Virus record (IMG/VR): IMGVR_UViG_3300006916_000044
Span: 27,371 to 91,370 of that record
Direction: 5' to 3' (one strand)
DNA: 64,000 nucleotides
Source: a virus
In this document: positions 8,201-51,171 of the stretch, in pieces
Layout: the number at the start of each line of letters is the position of its first letter
How positions within the stretch are numbered: the first letter of the stretch is position 1
The notes under the pieces: generated by a model
What the model was told of the DNA's origin: nothing
Seen by the model: the letters and a program-made list of their open reading frames with translations, nothing else
Database searches by the model: none
Program-made: the position numbers and the translations under genes

Positions 8201-11200
8201 TCACTTGGTGAATTTGATATAGCTAATCGTGATAAATTTAAAACTGTACTTGAAGAATATTTAAATGTTCTTGCTGAACAATTAGGTGACACAATACAAT
8301 CAGATAAAATTGATCAATATGTAGATGCAATTTTAGATTCAAAAAGTCTTACACAAAGACAACAAATTTTAAGTAGAGCAGTAAGAACAATTTTAGCTCC
8401 AGAAAATCTTGACAAACTTGCAGAAAGAATTGAGCCAAGATTTAAAAGAATGTTTCTTGATAACAAAAACAAAGTTGAAGCAAGATTAAGAAAATACCTT
8501 GATGTAACTAAAACCAATATTTGGTTAAATGAATTATCTGGTATGGGTGTTTATCCTGATCATACTGAATTAATTCAATATTTAGAAAACAACGGCCCTA
8601 TTCCTCAAACATATTATACAGAAGAAGGTTTATTAACAGAAGAATCAGCACAATGGGAAAAAGCTAATTATGTTATATCTGCTCAAGAAAATTTAACTAA
8701 AAAAGAAACACCACAAGAGACAGCTCAATCTGAAGATAGTGCTGATATAGAAGATAATATTGACTATGAAGAAAACTTTCTTCAAGAAGATACTGAAGAT
8801 GTAGAAGGAGTTGATGTAGAAATACCAAGTAATCAAGGTGATTTATATTTAAAAGGTAAATGGATTAAATATGTAGAAACACAATCAGCAAACAATAAAA
8901 AATATTTAGAGTTTTCTGATTGGGTTAAAAGTAAATTATCTAAACAAGATAGATTACAAGCTGCTGCTATTGAAGATATATATCAACAAGTATATTCTCC
9001 ATTACTTCTTAAAAATCCAAAACTAGGTTCTTTTTATACATGGTTAGGTACTCAAGTTGATAATGAAAAAATTCAAGATATTCTTACATTTAGAAATGTG
9101 TCTCTTTATAGTTTATTACCAGAGACTAAAAGTTCAACTATCAAAGTTGCAAATGAAGATGTAATTGATAAAGAAACAGGTAAAAAAGTAAAAGTATATT
9201 ATCATACTGATGAAAAAGGTAACCGTATAGATAATGAAGCATTTCTTACAAAAAAAGAAGCTGTTGAAACAAAAAAGAAAAAAGTTAATGAGAAGAAAAA
9301 GAAAAAACCAAATGAATTTACTTATGGAAAGTTTAATGGTGTAGATAATCCAAAATTAGCTAAAGGTACATTACTAATTAAAAATAATGTTTTGTATGTA
9401 GTAAAGTCTACTGATACTATGATTGCTGATAAAGGTAACTTATATATTAGAGAGCTATCAAAAGAATCTAGTAAAGATAATAATAACAATATATACTTAA
9501 CTGTTGAACAAGCAAATGATTATGAAATAGCATCAAACAAAGATATTAACTATGTAAAAAATACTTCTAAATTAAAAATAGAAGAAGCAACTAAAGTTAA
9601 TCCAACTTATGATAGATCAATTACTAACAGAGCAGAACAAATAGAAGCTGGTGTAAATAAACAACAAAATCTTCTTAGAAATCTTACTTCAGATGTAATA
9701 GGTGGTTTAAAGTTACGTATATCTTTAGGACCTAATCAATCAAACATAAATATACCATTTGAAGATAAAGAAGCTTTTCAATTTGGTACTCAAAATGAAA
9801 ATCCAAAAATAAAAAAGAATGCTCAACTGTTATCTGTAGAAATATATGATGCTAATGGTAGTTATGGTTATTTTCAAGGACCTGAAACTTTACTTTTGGC
9901 TGATGCTCAAGGTAACCCTATGTCTCCTTTTCAATTAACTGAAAATAATTTAGCTGAGTATTTTGATATTCCAAAAAATATGTCAACTGCTGATGCACTT
10001 AACTATGTTCAATTAAGTTATGCAGAAGCTTACAAAATTTATGATACATTTAAACCTTTATTATCTACTCAAAGTTTAGTAGAAGTTAATTTAAGTGATT
10101 TTCCTGAATTAATGGTAACACTTTCTGAAGGATCATTAACTAGAAGTAAATCAAATCCTTTAATTACATTTGATTCTCTTGATACAATGTTTGTTGGAGA
10201 TGATACTTCAGTTACTGTAGATGGTGAAAAGCCTTTCTTTATAATGGATTATAGTAGAAGGTATACCAGACCTAAGAACAAGAAAGAAAAAATGAAAGTT
10301 CAAGGTGTGCCTATTACTAATATTGATCAGTCATCAAAATTCTTTAATGCTATGATGGCCGAAGTTGATGCTATGGAAGAAAATTATGATGTTCTTAACA
10401 GAATGGGTAAGTATATTGCTTATGTAAAACTTCCTAATGGTAAAGGTGCTTTTGTAGGTTTAACAGCTCCAGTATATAGTCCAGAAAACTTTAATACATT
10501 ATTAACAGAAATTCAAGAAAAAGCTTCTGATCTTTTAGCTAATAATGTAAATGCAGATGGTACAGTTAAAAGTAAAACTGCAGCTAAAACTATAAATGAA
10601 AAAATACAAAATGAAATATATTTAGCTGCTGAACCAGGTATATATGTTGAATTAAGTCTTGCTAATGATGGATCATTACGTGTTAAATATACTAACATGA
10701 ATGAAACTAGAAATAGTAAGAAAAGAACAGCGCAAGGTTTTATCTCTAATGAAGAGTTAATGACATTTAAAGATGTTCAAGAAGTAATAAATAAATTAAA
10801 TGCTTTTATACAACCTATATATCCAAAAGGATTTAAACTAGATTCTATTAAAACATCTATACAAAAAGGTGAAACAGATATTGCTATCTTTGGCACATTA
10901 GAAACTCAGTTTACTCCAGAAATAAAAAATAATTTTAAATTACAACTAAGAGTAAATCCAAATGTTATTAGTATTGATCAAGTATTAAGAAATGCTTTTA
11001 ATACTAATATACCTGAGTCAACTGAAACAATAGATAATTCTACACCTGTAGTAGAACCAACTGCTGAAGAAAAAGAAGATATAATATTAAATGATTATGA
11101 AAATGTTGACGCTAACTACCTTTTAGAAATTGTAAGAAAATCACAGCAAGGTAAAGAGTTAACAGACTTTGAACAATCTGTTTTAGATAATACACCTGCA

Positions 11201-14200
11201 GAAATGATAGCTGGTTTATCAATACAGGTACAAAATGAAAGTACTACTGATATAAGTAATGCAGAAGTTCTTTTAGATCAAAACTATCAAGGAATTAGTT
11301 TTAAAGCTGAAGAAGATTTAAAAACATTTGTTGATAGATATTATGAATCAAGGTATCAACAAATAAAAACAAGTCAGCCTGAATTAACTGATTCAGATAT
11401 TATTGATATTGTAAATGCTGAAATGAAGGATATTGAAACAAATGCTAATAATCCTTTACATTCAGGTTATCTTACATTAAAAAGAATACAGGAAGATGCA
11501 GAAGGTAAAGCTTTTAAAATTACAGAAAATTTTGATGGCTATGATATTGAAGACATTAATACTTTTACTGATTGGGTTCGTGACAATATAAATACTGATG
11601 TCATAAGTTTATCAGTTGATAATCTTCAAAACAACATGATTAATGGTCAAATGATTGCAGGTCAATTTTTGATACATACTCATAATTTAGGTTTGTCTGG
11701 AGAAATTTCTGTAGGTACTAATAATCCTTTTAAATATCATGAAGCATTTCACGCTGTGTTTAGAATGTTCTTAACAGAAACAGAAATAAAAAGATATTTA
11801 AAATCTGCAAAGAAAGATGTTCTTGCAAAACTAAGACGTGAAGGTAAATCATTAACTGATGAATTAGCATCATTTAGAAAATCACATGGTATATATGCTA
11901 AACTATCTAGAAAAGAATTAGAAGAAAGATATTTAGAAGAGTTTATGGCAGATGAGTTTGAGGCATTTAAAATGAAACAAAAAACAAATGCAAGCTCTGA
12001 AACTAAAAGTTTATTCCAAAAGATTTTAGATTTTATTAAAGAGTTACTAGGTTTCCCAACATATAAACTAAACAGATTATACAGAGACATAAACAATGGT
12101 AAATACAAACGTGCAGGAGTACAGGAAAATAGATTTACTACTGCTGCATCTTCTACACCTTCTGTTGCATATAAGTCTCTTACTTTAGGTACTAAAAAAA
12201 TTAAAACAGTAACTAATACGGGTGAAAAATTTAAAACTATAATAAACTTTATGCCTAGTAATGATCAACATATTATTGTATCATCTGCTGCTAATTTGTT
12301 TATTATGAGAAAAAACAATGCAAAAGGTGATGTTAATACTGCTGAAATGTTAGATGGTGTTATAAATGATATTATTGAAAACTATAACTCAGAAAGACAG
12401 TTCTATAAGGACAAAGGTTTTATGTGGTATAAAGACAATATGTTAAAGATCCGTAATTATTATGACTCATTAACACGTCAAAAAAATGATTTAAAAGAAC
12501 TTGTTAGATTAAGATTAGATGAAGTAAGTAATGCTATTTTATTAAATCAAGAAGAATTAGATCAAGAAGAAGCAGATTTAGGAGATATTACAGTTGATCA
12601 GTGGGATAAAACTTCTGAAATGATTGGTGGTTTTGAAAGTGCACCAAAATTAATTAGAGAGTTATTTGCTACAGTTAGTATTGATAACCAAGATATGTTT
12701 GGTAACAAGATTATAGGAGAAAACAAAAATGAACCTATTAGAGTTGGTGTTAACTATAGTAAAGTATATGATTCAATTTTAAAAGCTGTTGCTAATGAAC
12801 CAAGTGCTAAAAAAAGAATGAAAAAACTTTGGGTATGGTCACAAGGTAGCAATGTAGAAACAAGAGCAGTTGTTGTAGAAATGTTTAAACAACTAGGATT
12901 ATTAAAAGCTGCTCAAGATGGAACATTATTTGATCCAGCTCAACCATTTCCAAGTTTAGAAAGTGAAACAGGTATAAGATCTACATTGTATAACATGATT
13001 AACAATCAGTTTGAAAATTATACCGTTCCTTATTTAATTCAATTAGTTGATAAAAATACAGGAGTTGTACAAATATTTGAAGCTAATAAAGCTGACGATG
13101 CTCATAATACTTTAGTTCAATGGGCAGAAAGCTTTAATAGAAAATATTCAGAAATAAGAATAGTTGGTAGTAAAGAAAATAAAGCTGCAAGAGATGCTAT
13201 AAATAGATTATCTGGATTTTTAAATATGCCATCTATTCCTGAAAAAATGGATATTATAAATGAATCAATGGTAATATCTGATTTAATTTTTGATACAACA
13301 GGTATGAAGTTTGATTCTAACTATATTTTGTTTAGTCTTTACAATAGATTAATTGATTTAAATATAGAAATTCCTGAGTCACAAAAATTACTATTTGATA
13401 TGAATCAATTTGCTGATCCTATTTCAGCAGAAGAATTATCTGAAATTGTACAAGCATTAAACTCAGGTGAAAATTTATTTTTAGATAATCAAGAATTAGA
13501 TACCGAAGATGTTGATGAAGCTACAGATGATACTCAACAATATTATGAAGGTGGTGTTAAAGGTAGATTAAGAAAAATATCTTTAAACAATGCTTATTTT
13601 GATGAAACAGTTGGTGCATCTACATTTATAAATGAAGAAGGCAATAGAATTTACGGACATCAAAGACCTACATTTCATCTTGTTGAATTAGCAAGAATGA
13701 CTACAGAAGAAAATTATGTAGAGAATAGAATTGCAGAAGATCCATTTTTAGAAGATAACTTTTTGTTAACTGATGAAAAGTTTAAATCAATGCAAGAAAA
13801 AGGCCAGATTAAAATTATGCGTATGTCTGGTCAAAAAGTTGGTGTAGCAAATTTAACAGCAGAAGGTATTGTAAAAGAAAATAAAGGTTATAATAAAGCA
13901 AATAGACAAGGTACAAAGTACGGTTCTTTTACACCTCAACAATTTATTGTAACATTAGTAAATAATTATACTGCTGGATATAATAGAGTAAATCCTGATA
14001 AATCACTTAAAGGTAGTTACATTGATCCAGTAACTAAAGAACCAGTTGATTTTGCTATTTCTCCTAATCTTATACGTGTTATTGAAGCTAGTAATACAGG
14101 TGACTTTGCTATGCTTCCTGTACATAAAATGATTGAGTTTGATGCAGATGGGACGGTTAATCTTACTGATCAAGGATATAAAGCATTTGAAAATATTATT

Positions 14201-17200
14201 AAAAGAGATGCTAAGGCTATTCAAAAAGAATTAGACCCAGAGACTGAAACACAAGATGATATTATTGGAGGTAATACAAACAGTAAGGGACAAAGAACTA
14301 ATTCTGGTAGATTATTTGAATTATCACATAATGGTAAAAAATTATTATCACCATTAAAAACTAGAATAAGAAATGTAAGGACATATAAAAATCCTGGATT
14401 AGGTGAAGATGTACAAAAAGCTTTACGTTCTGGTAAACAATCAGTACATTTATTACCTTTAGACAAAACAGATGATGTAGGTTTTACAGAAGGTGCTGAA
14501 GGTTTAATTGATGTAACAGTAGTAGAATCACAACCTATTTCATTGTTAATGAAAAATGAAGGGTTAATTAATATTGAAAATTTATCAAGTGATCAAGTAG
14601 AAAAATTAATTGATGACTTTGGTCCATATATAACTACAGAAAAACAAAATAAAAAACAACATGCATTTACTTTATTTCAAGGTACTGATGCAGAACAAGT
14701 TTATTATACTTATGGTTTTCAAGTTGCTGAATTCTTTAGAGGTAAAGTTTCTTTAGTAAAAATTAGTTTTACAGATCCTGTTTCAGAAAAATCAGATGTA
14801 AAAATTCAAACAGATAAAACAGGTCAAGAAACTATAGATATTCTTGAAGTTGATTCTACACCTGCTGAAATATTTGAACAATTAATAAATGATGGAGCAT
14901 CATTTGAAGAAGCATTTAAAGCTGTAGACGGTAAGCAAATTATAGAAAAAAGACTGTTTGATGAAGCAAACGAATTTATAGCATTGTTAAATGACTTTAA
15001 AGCTATAGGTAAAATATCACCTGATATTAGATCAGGGTTAGGTATAATTGAAGATAGTGGAAGTGGTACAATTGTTAATGATATAGATATAGAGTTAACA
15101 GAAGAAATGATGGAGTTGTATAATTTAGAATTTGATGATTTAAAATACAATCTTACTCAAATATTTTTAAATGATTATATAAATACTATTGCAGTTAATG
15201 ATGCATTATTAGGAGATCAACGTTTATCATTAAAAAATGCAATTGATGCTATTAAACGTGCAAAAATGCAAAATGCAGCTGGTTCTAATGTGTATTCTGA
15301 TATTATAGATCCAGCACTTGGTATAGAGCAAACTACTGAAGACATAGACATGCTTTTATATAAAGATAGTTTATATGAAAAAGAGTTTGAAAATATACGT
15401 AGTGAAGATAAGCAATTAGATTCAGATCCTGGTGAAAGAGGTGATGGTCAAATGTTAATTACACAAAAAGCAAATAGACATTTTTTACATGGTCTTGGAG
15501 AGTTAACACCACAAGTTGCAGCTGTGTTAGATAAAATTGAAGCAGGTAAAGAAGTAGAAATAAATGAAGAGTTTTTTGGAACATTAACAGCTGAATCATA
15601 TAAGCAAATGAATGCTATTATGAATTCACAAAAGCTTGTATATGGTGATGGTAAAGTTTATCTAAAAATGTCTGCATTTGTTTTAACACCATTACTTACT
15701 TCTAGAATGGATGAAAACGGAAACTTTACTATTCCTATTCCTGGAAGAGAAAGATTACATAATTTAAGAGTTAAGTTAGAAAAATGGGAACAAGATAATA
15801 ATGCTATTGCAATTGCAGTTCCTGCTTCTGCATCTAAGATGATGAAGTCTAACATGTTAGGTAACACTGAAACTTTTAATAATTCTAGTATTAGTGAAGA
15901 TAATATAACAAAGCTTAATGCTAAATACATGCGTAAGCAAATGGTTGTTCCTTCTAATAAAATAGAAATTGTTGATCCACGTCAAATAAAAAATCTAATT
16001 ACATCTGAACAAGATTTAAATGCTAAAGTAATTTGGGATGGTGTTGAGTTTTCAGTAGGTGATGTTGTTGATTTATACCATCAAGCTCAAAATAATAAAC
16101 TAGCAGTTAATTGGTTTGCAAAAAGAAATTTAGTATTTAATTTTGATGAAATATTAAATGATTACTTAAATCCACAAACAGCACAAAAAATAAATATTAA
16201 CTTAAATGCATTTTTAAAATTTGCTATAGCTGGATTAACATCTTCACAAGCTAAAAGTGATATGTTATCATACTTTGAAATGAATGAAGATGGTACAGGT
16301 GAACCTAAATTTAACTTAAACAACCAACTAACAAGAAAAAAATTCCAACAATTGTTCTTTACATTCTTAGGAAAAGGAACTATTTCTGCTAGACAACCTG
16401 GTATAAGTGCTGCTCTTGTTTCTGATGATGGTATGTTATTTCCAAAAAAAGTCAAAAGAGTAGATGAAAACGGTGTACCATTAGAATGGGAAGTAATAAG
16501 ACAAGCAAAATGGGAACAATTAGAAACACAAGGTGTAGCAGCAAAGTTATCTAATATTGGTTCTTTAAGTGGTTTACCTGAAGGGCTGCAAGTTGGAGAT
16601 TACTTTTTTGATAGACTTAGATCTGATGTTATGATGTATAATGAAGATGGTACTGAGTCAGGAGTAGTTTATACTGAATCTGTCATGCCTCCTCATTTTA
16701 AATCTATATTAGAAAATTTACCTGCAGATGCGGTTATTCCTGATGTATTAGCAATGGCGTATGGTATTAGAATTCCATCTCAAGATAAACACTCTGCTGT
16801 AAATATAAAATTTGTAGATTTCTTACCTGTATACTACGGATCATCTGCAATGTTTGCTAGAGAGTTAGTTGAATTATCTGGAGCTGACTTTGATATTGAT
16901 AAAATTTATATGCAAATAAAATCTTTCTTTGTTGACAAAGGAAAGTTTGTAGAATTTGGTAAAGCAAAAACAGAAAAAGAAAAATACAATCATTATTTAA
17001 CATGGGCTCTTAATCAAGCTAAACAAAAAGGTACACCAATTAGAGAATCTATTGATATATATTTAACTTCTAATCCTGATTTAGAATTTAATTTAAATGA
17101 GTGGTCTAATATGACACCAGAAGAAATAAATATATTAAATGAATCTGAAATTATTGCTAGAATAGGTATGGAAAACATTGGTTTACCAGTTAGTGAAGAG

Positions 17201-20200
17201 CAGTATAATGCATATAAAGAAAAATATAAAGAAAGAGAGCCTTATTCTGATGCTAATGATAATAAAATATTAGATTATAAATTTATTTTACAAGGTAATC
17301 CTGGTATGATTAAACCAAGAAATGGTAGAGAACTAGGTGTAGCTCAAGAACCTGCAAACTTAAAACCATTAACTGATTCAAATGCTGCAGAAGTCTTAGG
17401 AGCTGAAAATGCTGGTGTATGGGATTATATAAAAGCTAATTTACCACAACTAGCTGAAATTGTATCTGAAGAAGATATTGATATAGATAATCTTAGAGGA
17501 AAGCTTTTAGCATTTAAAGCTAATAAAGAAGGTGCTAAAAATATTGGTTCGTCAGTATCACCAAATTTAGTTATTAATATAGCTAAAGAATTTGGAGTAT
17601 CTGTAAGAACACTAAAAGATAAAAACGGAAGAGATATAATTCCTGCTTTAACTATTGATGGTATTCAGTACAGAGATTTTGTTGATTATACAATTGATCC
17701 TGAAACAGGCAAACAAGACAATCAAGCTTATAGAACTCAATATGTTATTTCTGCTTTAATTACTGCAATGACAGATAATGCTAAAGAAAGATTAGCTGAT
17801 AAACTTGGTTTAAATAAAACTGCTCTTGCAATGGTAACTATGATGACTGGTATGGGAGTTGATATTAAAACTTCTATTTTACTAATGAATCAACCGGTCA
17901 TTAGAGAAAATTTCTTTAAAGCTATAAATAAAGAAGATCCTACAGATCCAGGTATTAGAAAGTTGTTAGAAAGAAAAGCTATAGGTATTATTGAATTTAT
18001 GAAAAACAATAATATTAAAACACCTAAAGTAGCAATAACAAGAGCTTTATTAGAAGAAAAAGCAAATAATCCATATGAAGTATATGATTTATCTACATTA
18101 GATGTAGAAGATATAAATGAAGAAGTTAGATTTGCTTTAGCTGAAGAATTACTTACTATTAAAGAATTTTTAGTTGTATATGATCAACAAGAAACGTTAA
18201 GAGATGTTACTACTTTGTTAAATTTACAAAAAACATTTGGTGAAGATTTAATTGATGCAGAGAGAACGCAACAAGCAGCTGAAAATTTAGGTTTTTTAAT
18301 GAGTGATAAAGAATGGGCTAGTAGTGCAAAAAATCCTAATACTATTCCTTTTGACTTTAGACCTGTATTTATGTCTAAATATAATACTAAACCTTCTTTA
18401 CATGTAGACTATTATACAATATTTAGAGAATCATATGATTATTTATTCCCTAAATTATTCTTAGAAGCTTCACAAGATTTTAAATATTTAAAAACTCTTA
18501 TGTTAGACAATATGGTTAACATGATGGAGAAAAAAGATCAAGAGGAGTTAACTAATAATATAACTACATATTTAAATACATTAGCATATATGAATTCATA
18601 TGTTAATGTTTCTGAAAATGAGCAAGAAGGTTCAGGTAAACAAACTACACAAGATACTTTAAATAATGCCCTTATATATAATGGTGATCATTACGGTAAT
18701 CCTGATAACCAAAATCTTCATATAACTGAAGTATTTAAAAGATTAATAGCAAATAAAAAATCATACAACTATTTCTTAGATGATTTTTTACATTTAAGAA
18801 CTGCATTAAATGAAGATAATTATACTGGTATAGATAAAATTGTAGCAAATAATTTTACAAAATTAAGTGATTCAGATGTACAAAACATACAAAATTCATT
18901 TTTAGATTTGTATAGTGATCCTAATACACATATAGATTCTGTTTCTCTAATTCATTATTTATTAGTTAAAGATGGTTTTAATAAAAATAACCGTGGAACT
19001 TTTATTGATTTAATTCCTGTAGAACTTAAAAAACAAATATTAAATTCAATAGATGCAGTACAAACTTTATTTAATTCTAATAAGCAAACAGATGCAGCAT
19101 TTAATAGAGTATTTGGATTAACTAAACAAGAGTTAGCTAATTATTTAGTTTTTAATTACCTTCAGTCAACATCAGCTCAATACCATGTTTTAAATGTAGA
19201 TGTAGACAAAAAAGGTAAATTAGGAAATACTCCTGTTACTGAAATTAAAACAGAAGAAATTATAGACGTAGAAATTAGACCTAATGTAATCACAATATTA
19301 GGATATGAACCTAAAGGATCTACAATAGTTGATAATGATACTGAGTCATCAGCTTTATCAATGACAGCACCTAAACAATTTAAATATAAAAATAAAACAT
19401 ACTTTAGTGTTGATCATGCATATCAGGTTAATAAAACAGGTACATTTAATCAAGCTGCTGATAAAGATTATAGAAAAAAAGCTAAACAAGATAAAATTGG
19501 TGGATATACTAGAAAAACAAAAGGAAGAGAAAATTTAAATTTATTAACTTTACTTGTTAAATATGCTTTTCAAACTAATTTAAATAAAAATATAGGTGGA
19601 AATTCATTAGCAAGTTATGGTGATATTTTAACAGATGCTACAGATTTTGTTACAGTAGATATGAAAGAAGATTTATCAGTTGCATATATAAAAGGATTAA
19701 AGCAAGCACAATCTCAAATTGTAAAAGTTAAAAATAACAAAGGAGAAGAAATATATAAAAATAAAACAAACATTCAACTTGATAAAAAGAAACAAGTTGA
19801 TGCAGCTAAAGAACCATTTGTAATTGATTTAGATAAAGGTGTTGCAACTATAAAAATGTATGCAGGATTACCAACTTTCTTTAATGATAAAGTTAAAACA
19901 GTAAAAGGACAATTTAGCAAAAATCAAAATAGTGATGATGTTAAATCTATTCTTAGAGATAATCTAAAAACATTAGGAAGAAAAGGTATTAGATCTCAAT
20001 ATGTTAACATTAGATATGGTAATCAACCTAATCAATTTGTTAAAAAGACTCAGTTATATTTACCTTTAGTAATGAGAAAAACATTATCAGACGGAAAAAC
20101 TGTACTTTTACTTTTAAATAAATATCAGCAAGATGGTAAATATCAATCAACTTCTGATTTAAATCAATTATTAGAGGAAGGACAAACTCAAGTTGTAGGT

Positions 20201-20680
20201 AATTATGCTGAATACACAATCATAGAAGAAGGTCCTCAAGGGTCTAAAGATCAAAATCCTAATGGATTTTTATTTGGTGATAGACCATCTGAACAACAAA
20301 TAAATAAATTTGAGGAAGATAAAAGAGATGCTTTTGCTATTGATATGGAAGGTGCAGAGTTATTAGATGATATTGATGTAGAAGAACCAGTGGATGACGT
20401 AGAGGATATTGATTATGGTGATCCAGAAGATGTTGATATTGAAACTGATGACGATGTTAACCCAGCAGATGTTTTAATGGCTTTACAATCTACACAAGAT
20501 GATATTGTAAATGAATTAAAGTTAAGTAATGATGCATTAGTTGAATCATTTTATGATAGCTTAACACCAGAAGAGCAAGAAAAACTTGGATCTAAAGATG
20601 AAGTAATGAAACCTTATTTATCATATCCAATAGATCCTAATGAATATATAGAAAACCTTAAAAAATGTTATCTTAAATAA
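5234..20680 (+). CDS. Giant virion-packaged RNA polymerase polyprotein (crAss-like two-barrel RNAP) with zincin protease and NADAR-like domain, 5148 aa
   Basis: YGIRIPSQ...SGADFDIDKIY (DFDID at 16886-16900); DGQ and RQIKNLI motifs upstream; HEAFH zincin (11738-11752) with downstream EEFMADEF; Gly/Ala-rich hydrophobic N-terminal region. Confidence 0.9.
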   Translation: MAEDISNLNINFNPQVNNQPTEPKTVSTEDVNEGIIESPNFSIKTPTGKFTPTDIPAVDVDFNAIRNELFIPNSGEPIRTSIDPTVIKNAEVLANTLNYNPVVMDYPYNMDPNSALFKLDKPQDDSLANTILNFEDVTTPSVADPVSLQPLKFDKKATNYDRYNAPGFKHLFNKIGFHPYVDNETVYNANSTWWDENARMRGQWGRIFSTGFMSTYDAIGDAFAGNYLTGDRDGAEVFEDAMRIANSSKSGIGAFTNNLMLNSGYTFGILANIAVEELALAGLEAVTLGGATPIVASRTAYNIVRLGKAADNVLDVGKNTANTVKLLDKLKDANSARDYWRAGGRWALNIFTPQTYRAIKDVSTAREGAKALSLMAKTAKTAGGFYRDARSVNLAIAESKLEGGLVQNKLYNDLYHDYVAKYGERPTGTALEEINDKAAEAAFTTLAWNFPVIFFSNQFVLGTAFRGFRGVSSILSKSAGSLGNRVMRKSAKRLAKETTEGAAKEPFKLLSKNRFKRIFERGIYGNLSQAGASLLRYSSANLAEGFQEIAQEAIAVGAEDYYKNLYNDPAMGGLDAQMASIYSGISSQMSGQGFEVFMSGFLMGGLVQGPQKLVFNGLPNLYTRFSSPEDFAKQKENEETYIKEAVNTLNKMYADPMMYFDANKMNAMFQKEASQDMFDSTFDGDIRSFMDKKAALVFNHLYTAAELGKLNDFASLFEDMLKLDDAMLAEAMPDQTAEDIKSGKTRERIQDMITKADDMRKAYDKLNEEIINPFDPSTFKKGTRDYNEEAIKYAAFDHAKKMAMFARSQFENATVRIASMYSELSTDPIIKKMAANDIDVLTDLQALISEINLLKDEIELATAETTTTEEVVDEKTGETIIKETTAKPELSADEQIALEQKTKKLIALQNVFNVLTDPANVKEREVFSDAELEKIEDLTERAKEKTSRDNRLKLIDKLREDILSTGVRDKSQEIKEVIVNAFSNSNLMNSLGEFDIANRDKFKTVLEEYLNVLAEQLGDTIQSDKIDQYVDAILDSKSLTQRQQILSRAVRTILAPENLDKLAERIEPRFKRMFLDNKNKVEARLRKYLDVTKTNIWLNELSGMGVYPDHTELIQYLENNGPIPQTYYTEEGLLTEESAQWEKANYVISAQENLTKKETPQETAQSEDSADIEDNIDYEENFLQEDTEDVEGVDVEIPSNQGDLYLKGKWIKYVETQSANNKKYLEFSDWVKSKLSKQDRLQAAAIEDIYQQVYSPLLLKNPKLGSFYTWLGTQVDNEKIQDILTFRNVSLYSLLPETKSSTIKVANEDVIDKETGKKVKVYYHTDEKGNRIDNEAFLTKKEAVETKKKKVNEKKKKKPNEFTYGKFNGVDNPKLAKGTLLIKNNVLYVVKSTDTMIADKGNLYIRELSKESSKDNNNNIYLTVEQANDYEIASNKDINYVKNTSKLKIEEATKVNPTYDRSITNRAEQIEAGVNKQQNLLRNLTSDVIGGLKLRISLGPNQSNINIPFEDKEAFQFGTQNENPKIKKNAQLLSVEIYDANGSYGYFQGPETLLLADAQGNPMSPFQLTENNLAEYFDIPKNMSTADALNYVQLSYAEAYKIYDTFKPLLSTQSLVEVNLSDFPELMVTLSEGSLTRSKSNPLITFDSLDTMFVGDDTSVTVDGEKPFFIMDYSRRYTRPKNKKEKMKVQGVPITNIDQSSKFFNAMMAEVDAMEENYDVLNRMGKYIAYVKLPNGKGAFVGLTAPVYSPENFNTLLTEIQEKASDLLANNVNADGTVKSKTAAKTINEKIQNEIYLAAEPGIYVELSLANDGSLRVKYTNMNETRNSKKRTAQGFISNEELMTFKDVQEVINKLNAFIQPIYPKGFKLDSIKTSIQKGETDIAIFGTLETQFTPEIKNNFKLQLRVNPNVISIDQVLRNAFNTNIPESTETIDNSTPVVEPTAEEKEDIILNDYENVDANYLLEIVRKSQQGKELTDFEQSVLDNTPAEMIAGLSIQVQNESTTDISNAEVLLDQNYQGISFKAEEDLKTFVDRYYESRYQQIKTSQPELTDSDIIDIVNAEMKDIETNANNPLHSGYLTLKRIQEDAEGKAFKITENFDGYDIEDINTFTDWVRDNINTDVISLSVDNLQNNMINGQMIAGQFLIHTHNLGLSGEISVGTNNPFKYHEAFHAVFRMFLTETEIKRYLKSAKKDVLAKLRREGKSLTDELASFRKSHGIYAKLSRKELEERYLEEFMADEFEAFKMKQKTNASSETKSLFQKILDFIKELLGFPTYKLNRLYRDINNGKYKRAGVQENRFTTAASSTPSVAYKSLTLGTKKIKTVTNTGEKFKTIINFMPSNDQHIIVSSAANLFIMRKNNAKGDVNTAEMLDGVINDIIENYNSERQFYKDKGFMWYKDNMLKIRNYYDSLTRQKNDLKELVRLRLDEVSNAILLNQEELDQEEADLGDITVDQWDKTSEMIGGFESAPKLIRELFATVSIDNQDMFGNKIIGENKNEPIRVGVNYSKVYDSILKAVANEPSAKKRMKKLWVWSQGSNVETRAVVVEMFKQLGLLKAAQDGTLFDPAQPFPSLESETGIRSTLYNMINNQFENYTVPYLIQLVDKNTGVVQIFEANKADDAHNTLVQWAESFNRKYSEIRIVGSKENKAARDAINRLSGFLNMPSIPEKMDIINESMVISDLIFDTTGMKFDSNYILFSLYNRLIDLNIEIPESQKLLFDMNQFADPISAEELSEIVQALNSGENLFLDNQELDTEDVDEATDDTQQYYEGGVKGRLRKISLNNAYFDETVGASTFINEEGNRIYGHQRPTFHLVELARMTTEENYVENRIAEDPFLEDNFLLTDEKFKSMQEKGQIKIMRMSGQKVGVANLTAEGIVKENKGYNKANRQGTKYGSFTPQQFIVTLVNNYTAGYNRVNPDKSLKGSYIDPVTKEPVDFAISPNLIRVIEASNTGDFAMLPVHKMIEFDADGTVNLTDQGYKAFENIIKRDAKAIQKELDPETETQDDIIGGNTNSKGQRTNSGRLFELSHNGKKLLSPLKTRIRNVRTYKNPGLGEDVQKALRSGKQSVHLLPLDKTDDVGFTEGAEGLIDVTVVESQPISLLMKNEGLINIENLSSDQVEKLIDDFGPYITTEKQNKKQHAFTLFQGTDAEQVYYTYGFQVAEFFRGKVSLVKISFTDPVSEKSDVKIQTDKTGQETIDILEVDSTPAEIFEQLINDGASFEEAFKAVDGKQIIEKRLFDEANEFIALLNDFKAIGKISPDIRSGLGIIEDSGSGTIVNDIDIELTEEMMELYNLEFDDLKYNLTQIFLNDYINTIAVNDALLGDQRLSLKNAIDAIKRAKMQNAAGSNVYSDIIDPALGIEQTTEDIDMLLYKDSLYEKEFENIRSEDKQLDSDPGERGDGQMLITQKANRHFLHGLGELTPQVAAVLDKIEAGKEVEINEEFFGTLTAESYKQMNAIMNSQKLVYGDGKVYLKMSAFVLTPLLTSRMDENGNFTIPIPGRERLHNLRVKLEKWEQDNNAIAIAVPASASKMMKSNMLGNTETFNNSSISEDNITKLNAKYMRKQMVVPSNKIEIVDPRQIKNLITSEQDLNAKVIWDGVEFSVGDVVDLYHQAQNNKLAVNWFAKRNLVFNFDEILNDYLNPQTAQKININLNAFLKFAIAGLTSSQAKSDMLSYFEMNEDGTGEPKFNLNNQLTRKKFQQLFFTFLGKGTISARQPGISAALVSDDGMLFPKKVKRVDENGVPLEWEVIRQAKWEQLETQGVAAKLSNIGSLSGLPEGLQVGDYFFDRLRSDVMMYNEDGTESGVVYTESVMPPHFKSILENLPADAVIPDVLAMAYGIRIPSQDKHSAVNIKFVDFLPVYYGSSAMFARELVELSGADFDIDKIYMQIKSFFVDKGKFVEFGKAKTEKEKYNHYLTWALNQAKQKGTPIRESIDIYLTSNPDLEFNLNEWSNMTPEEINILNESEIIARIGMENIGLPVSEEQYNAYKEKYKEREPYSDANDNKILDYKFILQGNPGMIKPRNGRELGVAQEPANLKPLTDSNAAEVLGAENAGVWDYIKANLPQLAEIVSEEDIDIDNLRGKLLAFKANKEGAKNIGSSVSPNLVINIAKEFGVSVRTLKDKNGRDIIPALTIDGIQYRDFVDYTIDPETGKQDNQAYRTQYVISALITAMTDNAKERLADKLGLNKTALAMVTMMTGMGVDIKTSILLMNQPVIRENFFKAINKEDPTDPGIRKLLERKAIGIIEFMKNNNIKTPKVAITRALLEEKANNPYEVYDLSTLDVEDINEEVRFALAEELLTIKEFLVVYDQQETLRDVTTLLNLQKTFGEDLIDAERTQQAAENLGFLMSDKEWASSAKNPNTIPFDFRPVFMSKYNTKPSLHVDYYTIFRESYDYLFPKLFLEASQDFKYLKTLMLDNMVNMMEKKDQEELTNNITTYLNTLAYMNSYVNVSENEQEGSGKQTTQDTLNNALIYNGDHYGNPDNQNLHITEVFKRLIANKKSYNYFLDDFLHLRTALNEDNYTGIDKIVANNFTKLSDSDVQNIQNSFLDLYSDPNTHIDSVSLIHYLLVKDGFNKNNRGTFIDLIPVELKKQILNSIDAVQTLFNSNKQTDAAFNRVFGLTKQELANYLVFNYLQSTSAQYHVLNVDVDKKGKLGNTPVTEIKTEEIIDVEIRPNVITILGYEPKGSTIVDNDTESSALSMTAPKQFKYKNKTYFSVDHAYQVNKTGTFNQAADKDYRKKAKQDKIGGYTRKTKGRENLNLLTLLVKYAFQTNLNKNIGGNSLASYGDILTDATDFVTVDMKEDLSVAYIKGLKQAQSQIVKVKNNKGEEIYKNKTNIQLDKKKQVDAAKEPFVIDLDKGVATIKMYAGLPTFFNDKVKTVKGQFSKNQNSDDVKSILRDNLKTLGRKGIRSQYVNIRYGNQPNQFVKKTQLYLPLVMRKTLSDGKTVLLLLNKYQQDGKYQSTSDLNQLLEEGQTQVVGNYAEYTIIEEGPQGSKDQNPNGFLFGDRPSEQQINKFEEDKRDAFAIDMEGAELLDDIDVEEPVDDVEDIDYGDPEDVDIETDDDVNPADVLMALQSTQDDIVNELKLSNDALVESFYDSLTPEEQEKLGSKDEVMKPYLSYPIDPNEYIENLKKCYLK

Positions 20681-35878: not shown

Positions 35879-36064
35879 ATGGCAAAGAAAAAATTAGACA
35901 TAAAAAAAGCTATAAAAAAGCCTGGCTCACTAACAGCTGCAGCCAAGCGTAAAGGTATGACTATAGCACAATACTGTAAGAACCCGCCTAGTAAAAAGGC
36001 CGGTTATAGATGTAGATTTGCTAAGACACTTAAAAAGATTAGTAAAAAACGTAAAAAGAAATAA
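35879..36064 (+). CDS. Small basic protein (AIKKPGSL...FAKTLKK)
   Basis: Very K-rich; tightly packed in the operon. Confidence 0.65.
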   Translation: MAKKKLDIKKAIKKPGSLTAAAKRKGMTIAQYCKNPPSKKAGYRCRFAKTLKKISKKRKKK

Positions 36065-36835: not shown

Positions 36836-36997
36836 ATGCCAGGATATAAACATAGATATAAAAGTGGTGGCAGTAATAAAAGAGGAAACATATTACCTCA
36901 AGCTAGAAAAGGTGGACAACAAAGTTTGTTAAGTAAATTAACAACAAGAGCTCCTAAAAAAACTACAAAGGGATGTGGATGTGGTGGTCAAGTATAG
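36836..36997 (+). CDS. Small basic protein with YKSGG/ARKGG motifs and a GCGCGG end (53 aa)
   Basis: ATG-TAG ORF filling the gap; not in the ORF track. Confidence 0.55.
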   Translation: MPGYKHRYKSGGSNKRGNILPQARKGGQQSLLSKLTTRAPKKTTKGCGCGGQV

Positions 36998-38512: not shown

Positions 38513-38791
38513 ATGCCTGCAAAAAGAGACTATAAAAAAGAATATAAGAAATTTCAGTCCTCTACTAAATCAAAAAAAGATAGAGCGGCTAGAAATAAAG
38601 CACGTAGAGAAGGTCTTAAAGTAGGTAAAGTACGTAAAGGTGATGGTAAAGATCTTCATCATCCTAATGGACCACGTTCACAGAAGACTGTAGCAATGTC
38701 AGCATCTAAAAACCGTGGTAAAAAAGAAAAGAGCAGAGTAAAAGGTAGTAAAAGAAACTACCCTAAAACAAGAAAAAAAAGAAGTAAATAA
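38513..38791 (+). CDS. Small basic HNH-like protein
   Basis: RDYKKEY...RAARNKARR...GDGKDLHH...SKNR. Confidence 0.65.
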   Translation: MPAKRDYKKEYKKFQSSTKSKKDRAARNKARREGLKVGKVRKGDGKDLHHPNGPRSQKTVAMSASKNRGKKEKSRVKGSKRNYPKTRKKRSK

Positions 38792-39225: not shown

Positions 39226-39422
39226 TCTATATCTAATAAAGGTTCTAAGTAGTTGATTGCCCAATTATATGCAGCAGCCGGGTAGGTAAATAGTTTTCTT
39301 TTTCTTTTTACCCACCTGGCTGACTTGCGTTCATATATTACCATTTCCCATTTTTTTCCTACTGGATAACAACACGGCCAATACCCCTTCTTGGTAAGGA
39401 ATTTAATTTCTTCTTTATACAT
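39222..39422 (-). CDS. Hypothetical protein
   Basis: 66-aa ORF coupled to the SPL-like gene; convergent with the + arm. Confidence 0.5.
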   Translation of the reverse strand: MYKEEIKFLTKKGYWPCCYPVGKKWEMVIYERKSARWVKRKRKLFTYPAAAYNWAINYLEPLLDID

Positions 39423-40258
39423 CAGAATATATATCTTATTGTTGCTATGTCAAAATAGTTTGCATAGATTTGTTTAAACATCTCTAGAAGCTTATGCTTC
39501 TTTGCTATTGGATAGCGCATCACTCCTGTCCCATTTTTAACTTCATCAGAATATTTCATAATCTCACGGGCCTCATCACTAGCTTTAATCATTTGATTAA
39601 CATGATTAGTCAATGCAATAACTTCACATTTATTTTCACCTGCTACCTCTTTAACACGTTTAAACAACTGGTCATAATGCTTAGACCACCCCGGCATAAA
39701 TATAAGTGGAGAAAAATTTAAATGTACTTCCCATCCTAAATCTTTAAGTCTATTAATGTCTTGTATTCTAGATTCAATTTTTTGCATCTTAGGTTCTAAT
39801 ACATCTGAATAAGCTTGAGGCATGAGACTTACCCTTACTCTAGGTGGTTTATTAAAATGATTAACATTAAGTTTAAGAAGACCCGGATACTTAGTAGCCA
39901 TAGTACTATTAAGTTGTGGGTGATCATCAAAGCGCTTAAGGTAATCATGTAGTGGTTCAGGCATATGCTTTTGCATTAGAACTAAATCTGAGTTGCATGC
40001 AATGTCTACCATTGTATATACTGGATCTTGCTGGTTAGGAACTTTAGTGTAGCCCGCTTCCCAAGCAAGAACAGAGTTAAATATATCATTAACATTAGTA
40101 TTAACAAATACTCTATGTCCATTAAATCTAGACATATAACAATATGTGTCTACACAGCCACCAAAACATCCATAGATTATATTTGGAGCTATGCAGTCAC
40201 TACTATTGTTATTTGTTTTTGTTACTAATGTTTTTGTTACTTGTTTTTTGATGGCCAT
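39422..40258 (-). CDS. splB: Spore photoproduct lyase-like radical SAM enzyme
   Basis: GCFGGCVDTYCYM Fe-S motif, DIACNSD (cf. SPL ..CTSD H-donor Cys), ATK, RVSLMP, LNFSPLI, RY near the C-terminus. Confidence 0.8.
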   Translation of the reverse strand: MAIKKQVTKTLVTKTNNNSSDCIAPNIIYGCFGGCVDTYCYMSRFNGHRVFVNTNVNDIFNSVLAWEAGYTKVPNQQDPVYTMVDIACNSDLVLMQKHMPEPLHDYLKRFDDHPQLNSTMATKYPGLLKLNVNHFNKPPRVRVSLMPQAYSDVLEPKMQKIESRIQDINRLKDLGWEVHLNFSPLIFMPGWSKHYDQLFKRVKEVAGENKCEVIALTNHVNQMIKASDEAREIMKYSDEVKNGTGVMRYPIAKKHKLLEMFKQIYANYFDIATIRYIF

Positions 40259-40734: not shown

Positions 40735-40756
40735 AATTAATAGTTTTGATTAATAG

Positions 40757-40830
40757 TACACCCAGAAGGACTTGAACCTTCAACCTACAGCTTAGAAGGC
40801 TGTTGCTCTATCCAATTGAGCTATGGGTGT
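40757..40830 (-). tRNA. tRNA-Arg(UCU)
   Basis: ACACCCA/TGGGTGT acceptor stem, TAGCTCAATTGGATAGAGC D-arm, ACAGC-CTTCTAA-GCTGT anticodon arm, GGTTCAAGTCC T-arm; CCA not encoded. Confidence 0.95.
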
Positions 40831-40876: not shown

Positions 40877-41299
40877 TTAGTCTGCTTTTCTATCTAGTGC
40901 CATTAATAATAATAACAGATAACCAACAAGATCTCTTGCAGTATCTTCTGTATTATCATTCAAACCTACATGTGCAATTCTAGATAATTTATCATCAATA
41001 CGTGCTTTTATTGCTTCAACAGAATCAAGTTTACTAAATATATTAACAGGCTCTAATGCTGTATTCCCATATGCAGCATTTTTTTCTTTTAATAAATTAG
41101 TTATACTTTCTGCTACTGCATCTAATTGATCAGCAAATTCAGCATTTTTCCATTTACTTGATGCTTCATCTAAAGTATATGGTTTATTATACTCTAATCC
41201 TGGAGGACAATTCATTTTAACATCATAATTAAATGGATAATTACGTCCTATATCATAATAGTATTTATTATATTTTTCTTCTTTCTTTTTTTTACTCAT
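40877..41299 (-). CDS. DUF1599/Nmad1-like (nucleotide-modification-associated) protein
   Basis: KNAAYGN, RIDDKLSRI, DTARDLVGY. Confidence 0.75.
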   Translation of the reverse strand: MSKKKKEEKYNKYYYDIGRNYPFNYDVKMNCPPGLEYNKPYTLDEASSKWKNAEFADQLDAVAESITNLLKEKNAAYGNTALEPVNIFSKLDSVEAIKARIDDKLSRIAHVGLNDNTEDTARDLVGYLLLLLMALDRKAD

Positions 41300-42150
41300 A
41301 GTGTAAACACATTATTTGAAGAATTATAATCATCATTTTCTGGTAAGTCTATTAGATGTTCTTCAGGCATTTGAATATCATCTTCCGGATTAGTATATGT
41401 ATCTAAAGTATTATTTTTAGTTTTACTTAAACACTCAGCTGTCATAAACTCATGAAACTTAGCTTGATTTTTCATCCAGTTTCTTGGATGTGTTAACTTT
41501 AACGCATGTGTAACATGATTATAAAATGACCAAGCAGAATCAGAACTTACTCCATAATTGTATGATGCTTTATCCATTTCATTTTTTACACATGTCATTT
41601 GTTGTGAGTCAAGAAGTTTTTCTTCAATAAACAATCTACCTAAGAATTCAGCTTGATTCTTATTAGATAAAGTTATTGTTTTCATATCATTCTTGTCTTG
41701 AACAAGCTGATTGAAATTTTGTGAAGCTACACTTATTTGTTGTGCAATTGATACTGCAATGTCTGCATTAGCAGTTCCTGTGTGTTTACGACCATAGTTG
41801 GCCATATCACCATGGATCATTCCATTATTACATACTATTACATAAGCTCCAACTCCACATTGAAATCTTGTGCTCTTATCATATGAGTTTGTCCAAGCAA
41901 ACATCATACTAATTTCATTGTCTGATACAGAATTAGCTCCAGAGATATTGTATATCCCTTGAGCTACTCTAGCATTCATACTTGCTTTAAACAGTTGGTT
42001 ATTGATTTTAAAACCATTAACTTTTAATAGTTTTTGTGTGTGATCCATCACTTCTTTATGTGATACCACTGTATACGTCTTACCATGTGATGGTAAGGGT
42101 GCGTTTTCTAAATAAACTTTGGTTGTTGTAACCGCTTTTTTGTGTCCCAT
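41296..42150 (-). CDS. DUF932/DUF945-like protein
   Basis: YTVVSH, NSYDKS, VCNNGM, RKHT, WSFYNHVT. Confidence 0.75.
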   Translation of the reverse strand: MGHKKAVTTTKVYLENAPLPSHGKTYTVVSHKEVMDHTQKLLKVNGFKINNQLFKASMNARVAQGIYNISGANSVSDNEISMMFAWTNSYDKSTRFQCGVGAYVIVCNNGMIHGDMANYGRKHTGTANADIAVSIAQQISVASQNFNQLVQDKNDMKTITLSNKNQAEFLGRLFIEEKLLDSQQMTCVKNEMDKASYNYGVSSDSAWSFYNHVTHALKLTHPRNWMKNQAKFHEFMTAECLSKTKNNTLDTYTNPEDDIQMPEEHLIDLPENDDYNSSNNVFTL

Positions 42151-42161
42151 AATTGTCAAAT

Positions 42162-48699: not shown

Positions 48700-49963
48700 T
48701 ACTTTAATGTCATTTTAATTATTTCAGGGTTCATCATAAACTTGTTGAACTTCTGCTTGTTACCATTAAAGATAGTTCTAACAATTAGATACTTAAGATC
48801 ATTAGAGAAATACTCTTTAGTACATAGTGTTAGCAACCTATCAGTAATCTTTTGGTTAACTGTATTCTCTTTAGAGTATACAACAGCATAGTTACCAAGT
48901 CTTGTTGCAAGTGTAGACGCAATGTCTGCACGGTATGAATCATCTTTACCAACACATGATCCAAGCTCACCTAAAATATATTGCTCATTGTCATGAGTCA
49001 ATAAGTCTTTAGGAGTTACCAGCTTGTCTAACTTGTTATTAATAAAGATTGTAAACATAGATGCAAACTCTTCACCACACTACCTTCACCAATCATTTGG
49101 ATTAGTGGTAGATTCTCATCAAATTTCTCAAAGCTAGATATAGCATTGAAGAATGTAGAAATAGATCTTGCATTAGTTTCTTGTGTTACAAGTTCAGGAT
49201 GCATTAACAAAAAGTTAATACATCTTGAGTCAATACCTTCTGCTTCTGCCCATCTTGCCCACACATCTACATCAAACTTTAAGTTTGCAGTAATGTAACG
49301 AGTCTTTTGTGCTGAGTCAACAGAGTTAACCATATAGTCACCGTTATCAGGATTTGCAGTTAATATAATATGCCAATCCTCTGGTAGTGTCCATGAGATG
49401 TATGTCTGACGGTCTACCAATTCCATAACAGCCTGGATGAATCTTATATCTGCACGGTTCCAGTCATCAAGAAGTAGGATACCACCTTTCTTCTTACCTG
49501 CAATCCACTCAGGTGCACAGTATGACATACGGTTTTGACCCGTCATCTTCCATCCACTCTTAAGATATTCTGCTACAGCTAACTCATCAACCCACTGACC
49601 AACTTTTTTAGTAGTAGTTTTGTTTGCTAGCTTTAGTAGATCATCAGCTGCAGCGCCCGTTCTACTATAGTTTACATCATCACCTTTAACAGGTACTTGC
49701 TTTTCTTTATACATTTGAAATTGTCTAACTGGAAAACCTACAAGGTCACCCAACTCCTCAATCTGTGCAAGATTAAGTTTAACAAAATCTAGATCATGAT
49801 CTCTTGCCATGTCCATAATAGATGTAGTCTTACCAATACCAGACTCACCAACAACTTCAATTGCTACTGGTTTTTTACCTTGTTTCTGTAGGAATCTATT
49901 GTTGTTAACTACGTGATTAACAAAATCCTTTAACTCATCAATGTTTAAATTTACTTGTGCCAT
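48699..49963 (-). CDS. MoxR-like AAA+ ATPase, split by a one-base frameshift near 49075
   Basis: GESGIGKT, LLLDDWNRA, TANP. AGT GTG GTG AAG plus one base gives ...GEGSVGEEFASMFTIF..., joining the two track ORFs. Confidence 0.85.
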
Positions 49964-49971
49964 TTTCTTTA

Positions 49972-51171
49972 TTATTTATTAATTTGAATTTTTAGTCCTG
50001 GTAACTCTTGATTTATATTACAACGAGAACTGTGTACCCAAAGAGCATTCTTTGGACAATTCTCTGGAGCATAAGCTTCACCATCTGTTAAATATATAAG
50101 GGCCGTGTAGTGACCCTTCTCATTATAATGATCTATTACAGGTTGAAAGTCTGTACCACCTCTACCTTTGATTTCCCAATCCTTTTTTGGATTGAATTCT
50201 TCTATACTGTTTATACTAGTATCACATTGTACTATAGTAATTTTGTGACCAGTCTTGTGCATATGTGTAAGCTCATTCATAAACTCTACTAACTCTGAGT
50301 TAGATACAGATCCACTTGTGTCAACACCAACACAGATATGATTCTTAAACTTTATCTTAAGACCTGGATTTGCTGAATATCTTTTATTATACTTACGTCT
50401 CAACTTTTTAGTATAACTAATACTAGAATTACCAACAAACCTTCTTAGATATGCTTTCCAATTAAATACTGGTGGTTCTATAGTTCTAAGTCTATTAATT
50501 AACTCTTTAAATTCACCAGGTACATGACCTTGTCTTTTTTCTGTTAACTCTGCAGTTTCTTTTAACTGATGTTCAATTTGTTTTTGTACTAGCTTCTTAT
50601 CAGCTTCTGATAACTCATCAAATTCATCCCACGTATTGTGACAATACTGACTAGCTCCATTCATTTGATTTAATAAGTTGTCTAATGTTGGACACGATCC
50701 ATCTTGTTGAGCTTGCTTAAGTAAATCATAGTATACTTTAGTCCCTGCTTTATTAGGAAGATTTAACTCAGGAAATGTATCCAATGTTAAACCACCTTCA
50801 GGTAAACAATCAGTTGCTATATACTGATTAATTTCTAGATCAGCTGCTATATTAAATAGTTTTTGATCATCATACTTATCTCTTATAAGTAAATGTCCAA
50901 AGCCTACATGTAATATCTCATGTTTTAGCAAACCCATTTGTTGTTTTTCAGTAAGACCATCAAAGAATGCAGGATTAATTGCTAGCTGCACACCCATTCC
51001 GTTTTTACTTACACCTGCTGTAGGCAGATCATCTCTATATTTTTTATTGATTCCTATAAGAAAGAGACCATAAAATGGTTCTTTAAACATAAGAGTCTTA
51101 CAAGCTTTAGATACTTTATCTACTACTTTCTGTATGTTAATAGCTGTTGTATTCATCATATAATCTATCAA
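49972..51171 (-). CDS. DUF2201-type metallopeptidase plus vWA-domain protein
   Basis: HEILH, NIAADLEINQ, VDTSGSV MIDAS, GRGGTDF, YLTDG. Confidence 0.88.
   Translation of the reverse strand: MIDYMMNTTAINIQKVVDKVSKACKTLMFKEPFYGLFLIGINKKYRDDLPTAGVSKNGMGVQLAINPAFFDGLTEKQQMGLLKHEILHVGFGHLLIRDKYDDQKLFNIAADLEINQYIATDCLPEGGLTLDTFPELNLPNKAGTKVYYDLLKQAQQDGSCPTLDNLLNQMNGASQYCHNTWDEFDELSEADKKLVQKQIEHQLKETAELTEKRQGHVPGEFKELINRLRTIEPPVFNWKAYLRRFVGNSSISYTKKLRRKYNKRYSANPGLKIKFKNHICVGVDTSGSVSNSELVEFMNELTHMHKTGHKITIVQCDTSINSIEEFNPKKDWEIKGRGGTDFQPVIDHYNEKGHYTALIYLTDGEAYAPENCPKNALWVHSSRCNINQELPGLKIQINK

Follow-up and report, generated by a model that had tools for sequence, protein, structure and literature searches.

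Within a 64,000-nucleotide stretch of viral DNA (the window), we have found a gene that encodes a short-form member of the spore photoproduct lyase (SPL) family of radical SAM enzymes, and we consider it about an even chance that its product is a working, minimal lyase of the spore photoproduct (SP) type that repairs thymine dimers in phage DNA in the dark. The reading is the most economical one because the site for cluster and SAM, the pocket for the two thymines, and the cysteine donor with its tyrosine relay are all kept under selection, and it draws support from the company of the gene, which travels with replication and repair genes. The gene lies at 39422-40258 on the minus strand and specifies 278 amino acids; it was delimited as an open reading frame (ORF) and assigned by its match to PF20903, an AlphaFold (AF2) model and structural overlay with VIA-align.

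The original prediction of an SPL-like enzyme at this location is borne out. The protein scores 64 bits against PF20903, the Pfam SPL family, where the cut-off is 27, and a phmmer search of all PDB chains returned the SPL of Geobacillus thermodenitrificans as the sole match (E 1e-8). A profile of 58 diverse relatives (profile A1) matches the PDB SPL with E 1.8e-38 over its native residues 63-340. The AF2 model built on the alignment of the same relatives has a mean pLDDT of 96.5, and a Foldseek search with this model places six SPL entries on top (E 6e-14, TM 0.78 to 4fhe), and the radical SAM fold that ranks after them has E 2e-4. When the model was superposed on SPL with VIA-align, residues 1-278 were laid over SPL residues 61-341 with a Z score of 26.5 and an rmsd of 2.4 A across 265 residues, while RlmN, viperin and PFL-AE gave Z scores of approximately 13-14, the best non-SPL fold reaching 13.9. 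By its predicted structure, the protein is an SPL-family radical SAM protein with the partial TIM-barrel fold specific to SPL. Among the curated models the highest score is that of TIGR03886 ("spore photoproduct lyase family protein"), whose positions 62-346 are matched through to the C-terminal end and whose positions 1-61 have no counterpart in the phage protein. The score of 142.7 bits stays below the equivalog cut-off of 437.55, and the 60.9 bits obtained with TIGR04070, the NCBIfam model of true SplB, compare with a cut-off of 400 bits; the phage protein is nearer to TIGR03886 than to true SplB. The PHROGs collection holds no family for the protein, and BFVD holds no close viral structure, the top match there being a 469-aa protein (E 3e-8). 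The label "spore photoproduct lyase" has already been given to members of this family by automatic pipelines.

We compared the protein with SPL residue by residue, taking the roles of the SPL residues from the literature (PMC3467042) and the correspondences from phmmer and profile alignments. Conservation was counted over the 58 diverse relatives, and 121 near homologs were used for the cysteine count in the near clade. In SPL, C140 is the hydrogen-atom donor, Y98 relays the radical and Y96 belongs to the radical relay region (PMC3467042). The phage counterpart of the donor is C88, which by sequence alignment corresponds to C140 in Geobacillus and C141 in Bacillus and lies in the segment DIAC88NSD (residues 85-91; 39986-40006, minus strand). 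The register at C88 and at Y41, the counterpart of Y98, is fixed by deposited mutant chains, as the residue opposite C88 is the one that differs in the C140A and C140S chains (4fhe, 4fhg), and the residue opposite Y41 is the one that differs in the Y98F chain (4k9r). A cysteine at the hydrogen-donor position of SPL had been proposed for this gene, and the alignment of the two C140 mutant chains agrees with its being C88. When this donor is changed to alanine in SplB (C140A), a thymine-sulfinate adduct results. Among the diverse relatives the position holds cysteine in 38 of 58 and is replaced in the remaining 20 (glutamate in 9, asparagine in 5), so the chemistry of the family may not be uniform.

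The residues that hold SAM and the lesion bases are kept more strictly. K174 and S195 of SPL bind the SAM carboxylate (PMC3467042), and their counterparts K123 and S144, retained in 56/58 and 53/58 relatives, lie in the stretch from K123 to R142-V-S144 (39827-39892, minus strand), which phmmer and the profile align without gaps. R142, kept in 55/58, takes the place of R193, which in SPL contacts O4 of the 5'-dihydrothymine (PMC3467042). Profile alignment pairs E212 (53/58; 39608-39625, minus strand, a segment that also includes T217) with E268, another contact to the 5'-dihydrothymine base of the lesion, and Y276 (54/58; 39431-39433, minus strand) with Y339, which hydrogen-bonds to O4 and N3 of the same base (PMC3467042). 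These five residues with SAM or lesion-base contacts (K123, S144, R142, E212 and Y276) are 91-97% conserved among the 58 relatives, and for the counterparts of C140, Y96, Y98, K174, S195, R193, E268 and Y339 as a whole the range is 66-98%. The SPL loop S76-S79, whose backbone holds the 3'-thymine, lies opposite a conserved N-x-x-S19-x-D21.

The cluster motif, C31-x3-C35-x4-C40 (CFGGCVDTYC; 40139-40168, minus strand), was located by phmmer and profile alignment and is followed directly by Y41, so that residues 31-41 read C-FGG-C-VDTY-C-Y. C31, C35 and C40 correspond to C90, C94 and C97 of Geobacillus SPL and are invariant across the 58 relatives; Y39, the aromatic directly before the third cysteine, corresponds to Y96 and is kept in 57/58, and Y41 is kept in 51/58. 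The spacing is CX3CX4C and not the canonical CX3CX2C. It had been described as a two-residue expansion of the canonical motif, which is correct: phmmer opens a two-residue gap in the lyase after the second cysteine, and CX3CX4C together with the C88-equivalent cysteine is present in 121/121 near homologs. The gene is under purifying selection, with a dN/dS against its relatives of 0.06-0.18. Given this selection, the 121/121 count and the invariance of the three cysteines, the combination of motif and donor cysteine is, as judged from the aligned sequences, not a chance pattern.

Scanning 1.8 billion cluster representatives with HMMER recovered only 197 clusters at E<=0.001, mostly of about 280 aa, and these include both CX3CX2C forms and stereotyped C-x-G-G-C-x-x-[S/T]-Y-C-Y forms. 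The CX3CX4C state has a scattered distribution on the maximum-likelihood tree built from 74 representatives; at least 5 changes of spacing are forced by well-supported branches, parsimony gives 9-11, and the two spacings alternate among close relatives that have the same pocket residues. This scatter indicates that the two spacings interconvert without loss of the pocket residues, and we argue from the repeated interconversion that the stretched loop would still bind a working cluster. The best explanation of the two-residue insert would be a tolerated variant of the cluster loop and not a loss of function, with SAM cleavage at CX3CX4C being putative. A full-text literature search for the CX3CX4C spacing found no radical SAM paper.

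Several parts of SPL are changed or missing in the phage protein. The binders of the intra-lesion phosphate in SPL, R273 and K309, are not retained: T217 stands at the position of R273 (threonine in 54/58 relatives) and V246 at that of K309. The family-conserved R248 could serve as a stand-in for these phosphate contacts. The beta-hairpin region (39500-39544, minus strand; EVKNGTGVMRYPIAK) was located by profile alignment and the AF2 model, in which the hairpin is of the same length as that of SPL, with strands at 239-240 and 246-248 and K241/N242 at the tip. These two residues lie opposite R304/Y305 of SPL, the tip to which lesion flipping is attributed; the position equivalent to 305 is tyrosine in only 18/58 relatives. 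After the hairpin comes a family-specific R248-Y249 pair (R248 in 49/58, Y249 in 55/58). SPL's alpha/beta domain at the N terminus, with its four-stranded sheet and three helices, is mostly absent, amounting to about 60 residues, and SPL residue 61-63 is where the phage protein begins to align. Its gene begins 21 nt past the previous ORF, of 85 aa. This ORF was considered as a split-off N-terminal domain and ruled out (hhalign probability 0.2%); among the relatives, just the 3 nearest have kept it, and just 9 have kept the downstream ORF of 66 aa.

If the protein is an SP-type lyase, we infer that it would work in the following way. The enzyme would be made together with the phage replication genes, and a [4Fe-4S] cluster on C31, C35 and C40 would cleave SAM. 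The 5'-deoxyadenosyl radical would take a hydrogen atom from a flipped-out, methylene-bridged thymine dimer, either 5-thyminyl-5,6-dihydrothymine or a close analogue, gripped by R142, E212 and Y276 together with the conserved loop near the N terminus. The methylene bridge would then break, C88 would give back a hydrogen atom, and Y41 and Y39 would relay the radical back. The outcome would be a light-independent, direct reversal of UV damage in an AT-rich phage genome. The genome has a GC content of 30%, and at about one quarter of its dinucleotide steps one of the two strands reads TT. Holding this reading back are the changed phosphate and hairpin-tip contacts, the missing N-terminal domain and the literature on the lesion: the DNA in which SP has been described is dry, frozen, A-form or SASP-bound, and our literature search found nothing showing SP in hydrated virions. 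We also counted against it the scores far below the cut-offs of TIGR04070 and TIGR03886 and the CX3CX4C spacing. An SPL-family protein is UV-induced in Curtobacterium, a non-spore-forming actinobacterium (PMC12029717), which shows that enzymes of this family can take part in UV responses outside spores. The phage might even follow a spore-like strategy against UV, in which basic proteins hold the virion DNA in a dehydrated, A-like state, UV then produces SP instead of cyclobutane dimers, and the phage lyase erases SP in the dark after injection. Arrays of very basic small proteins near 35.2-36.1 kb and 38.5 kb in the window are named in this proposal, which we regard as doubtful; if it were true, SP would matter ecologically as a lesion beyond endospores.

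The protein is encoded on at least 183 viral contigs, of which the best 80 are 73-97% identical to it. More distant short forms occur at about 50 further viral loci, which have the DnaB, DUF932 and polymerase genes in common. A tblastn search for the 278-aa protein gave no homolog in 50,697 deposited phage genomes, and a scan with P0172 gave no viral relative. The source virus record in IMG/VR has 91 kb and an estimated completeness of 79%; complete relatives have 110-120 kb. The source is consistent with an uncultured marine crAss-like phage, to judge by a 5148-aa ORF and a B-family polymerase near that of Cellulophaga phage phi14:2; the nearest deposited relatives of the polymerase, phi14:2 among them, are approximately 34% identical. 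The giant ORF (5234-20680, plus strand) is a single frame, and an ORF of 1846 aa follows it. Near-identical phage DNA is present at high depth in one marine metagenome run. Three contigs of about 150 nt from an oligo-dT marine RNA run, 88-95% like parts of the gene and with a depth of 2-4, were discarded as evidence of transcription because DNA carry-over is possible. An attempt to find the host from metagenome-assembled genomes (MAGs) was likewise rejected, as the five matches were spread over the bins of as many unrelated taxa (Pseudomonadales, Flavobacteriales, Sphingomonadaceae, Campylobacteraceae and Clostridium). Among the binned contigs is a whole phage genome of 114,697 nt, and the phage contigs in these bins are likely binning errors and not host evidence. 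The CX3CX4C motif characterizes a phage lineage and not this window in particular.

The SPL-like gene closes a leftward replication module and converges on structural genes. This module contains a primase-like Toprim protein, DnaB, AAA_24, a SNF2-type helicase, RusA, a PD-(D/E)XK exonuclease, PolB and DUF932, and comparison with a complete relative indicates that the window holds almost the whole non-structural module. Its place in the replication module is constant among the carriers. For the distant homologs we took the genomic context from loci on viral contigs. No 2OG oxygenase turned up among 10 ORFs upstream of the gene in relatives. The neighbors that recur across relatives are DnaB, uracil-DNA glycosylase (UDG), DUF932, helicases, AAA_24, PhoH and dNMP kinase. 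A DUF932 gene is directly upstream of the SPL-like gene in 13 loci; here it lies at 41296-42159 (minus strand), and it is the most constant upstream neighbor in three divergent phage groups, with a median gap to the SPL-like gene of 64 nt in loci other than this window. The pairing may be more than synteny. A UDG-superfamily glycosylase is found near the SPL-like gene in 15 distant loci; UDG is present in 14 of the 31 carrier records searched, and 8 of these 14 have it at no more than 3 kb from the SPL-like gene; it is directly upstream in several carrier records. There is no UDG within this window. A promoter scan around the SPL-like gene gave counts no better than those of shuffled sequence.

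Other features of the window were recorded along the way. Its only tRNA, a tRNA-Arg with anticodon TCT (40756-40830, minus strand), sits between a 140-aa ORF and the SPL-like gene and reads the codon AGA, which should be frequent at 30% GC. An ATPase (phrog_1297) adjoins a protein of the DUF2201 putative metallopeptidase plus VWA-like type in the replication module (49028-51171, minus strand), and this ATPase and DUF2201 pair has no obvious role in replication. The converging structural module includes very Lys/Arg-rich small ORFs at 35879-36064, 36836-36997 and 38513-38791 (plus strand).

In the main rival to an SP-type lyase, an SPL-family radical SAM enzyme works on DNA but recognizes a different thymine or uracil lesion or cross-link, for example another pyrimidine adduct, methylene-bridged or radical-derived, of hydrated or packaged B-form DNA. 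We treat this related but different lesion as a tentative and somewhat unlikely explanation. The base-contact and relay residues are kept while there are differences in the R273/K309 contacts, at the hairpin tip and in the N-terminal domain, the protein is nearer to TIGR03886 (142.7 bits) than to SplB (60.9 bits), and the formation of SP in hydrated virions is undocumented, all of which speak for it; yet the pocket residues that read O4 and N3 and the loop that holds the 3'-thymine are the most conserved ones, and none of the SPL relatives has a known alternative substrate. That the protein works on something other than DNA (RNA, a nucleotide or a protein), or binds a cluster without cleaving SAM, appears improbable to us given the strong purifying selection, the retention of K123, S144 and the aromatic before the third cysteine, the alternation of both spacings among close relatives with the same pocket residues, and a fit of the whole chain to SPL that far exceeds the fits to RlmN, PFL-AE and viperin, although the unusual CX3CX4C spacing and the loss of the N-terminal domain and of several DNA-contact residues of SPL would suit such a protein.

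Base modification had also been put forward in the original prediction, together with a nearby gene described as Nmad1-like (that is, DUF1599). Pseudomonas phage M6 gp53 is an SPL-like radical SAM N-alpha-glycinylthymine isomerase that acts on DNA (PMC8989533), and a DNA base hypermodification enzyme of this type would rearrange a group appended to thymine, possibly with the DUF1599-like neighbor. The precedent of gp53, SPL-like and active on modified thymine in DNA (PMC8989533), counts in favor of this role, as does a language-model search that linked the 140-aa neighbor to a DUF1599 cluster (score 0.90, rank 23). This last lead is the only one for the Nmad1-like gene, and we could not uphold that assignment: the 140-aa ORF (40877-41299, minus strand) has no Pfam match even at E<=5, a DUF1599 search of this genome found nothing, and the family that the ORF does match, phrog_1485, is one of unknown function. 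The role itself fares little better. Matching of gp53 to the family profile covers the radical SAM core only (hhalign probability 91%, 164 columns), and gp53 has a gap at the C140 segment and no Pfam SPL match. A thymidylate-synthase-like hydroxymethylase supplies 5-hmdU, and a thymidylate-synthase-like gene is missing from this genome and from 30 of the 31 carrier relatives, so that PF00303 (thymidylate synthase) occurs in 1/32 carrier genomes and the hmdU pathway is absent. The one record with a thymidylate synthase family gene has it at G016:C1:76773-77702 (E 1e-88), and its SPL-like gene lies about 4 kb away. Neither kinases of the hypermodification type nor PLP or transferase genes are among the recurrent neighbors listed above, and the gene context of 5-HMUDK, aGPT-Pplase, PLP enzyme and dUMP hydroxymethylase was not found around the SPL-like gene. 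A search for PF12851 (Tet_JBP) in 26 carrier records was silent, as were its own controls, so its silence carries no weight. We judge hypermodification to be very improbable.

Sunlight is a major cause of the decay of marine viruses, and the repair of their DNA is usually credited to host photolyases and excision repair. If the SP-type lyase reading is true, a widespread phage enzyme would add radical, light-independent reversal of thymine dimers to marine virus repair, and SP-type lesions would occur outside spores. Phages may possess a dark UV-repair route so far undescribed; apart from M6 gp53, our literature search yielded no publication on relatives of SPL in phages, crAss-like or other. 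To radical SAM enzymology, the family offers a natural minimal SPL of 278 aa without the N-terminal domain and a natural experiment in which CX3CX2C and CX3CX4C loops interconvert around the same active-site residues.

Comparison with known systems places the phage protein as follows. Phage T4 encodes DenV (endonuclease V), which repairs UV pyrimidine dimers in the infecting genome independently of light, and it is a precedent for a phage having its own enzyme for light-independent repair of UV dimers. The fold of DenV is unrelated, and it acts as a glycosylase/AP lyase on cyclobutane dimers and not by direct radical reversal. M6 gp53 resembles the protein described here in being a phage-encoded, SPL-like radical SAM enzyme concerned with thymine derivatives in DNA (PMC8989533); it differs in its 480 aa, its canonical CX3CX2C, its gap at the C140 segment, the absence of a Pfam SPL match and its location in a cluster of kinase, transferase, PLP and thymidylate-synthase genes, a cluster that is absent here. 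The SPL-family protein of Curtobacterium (PMC12029717) is, like the phage protein, from a source that does not form spores. With Geobacillus SplB (4FHC/4FHD) the phage protein shares the partial TIM-barrel, the cluster cysteines, a modelled beta-hairpin at the same place and the counterparts of Y96/Y98, C140, K174/S195 and R193/E268/Y339, at approximately 20% identity. It differs from SplB in having CX3CX4C where SplB has CX3CX2C, in being without about 60 N-terminal residues, and in the replacement of R273 by T, of K309 by V and of R304/Y305 by K/N; and unlike SplB it is encoded by a phage, in a virus of non-spore-forming aquatic hosts.
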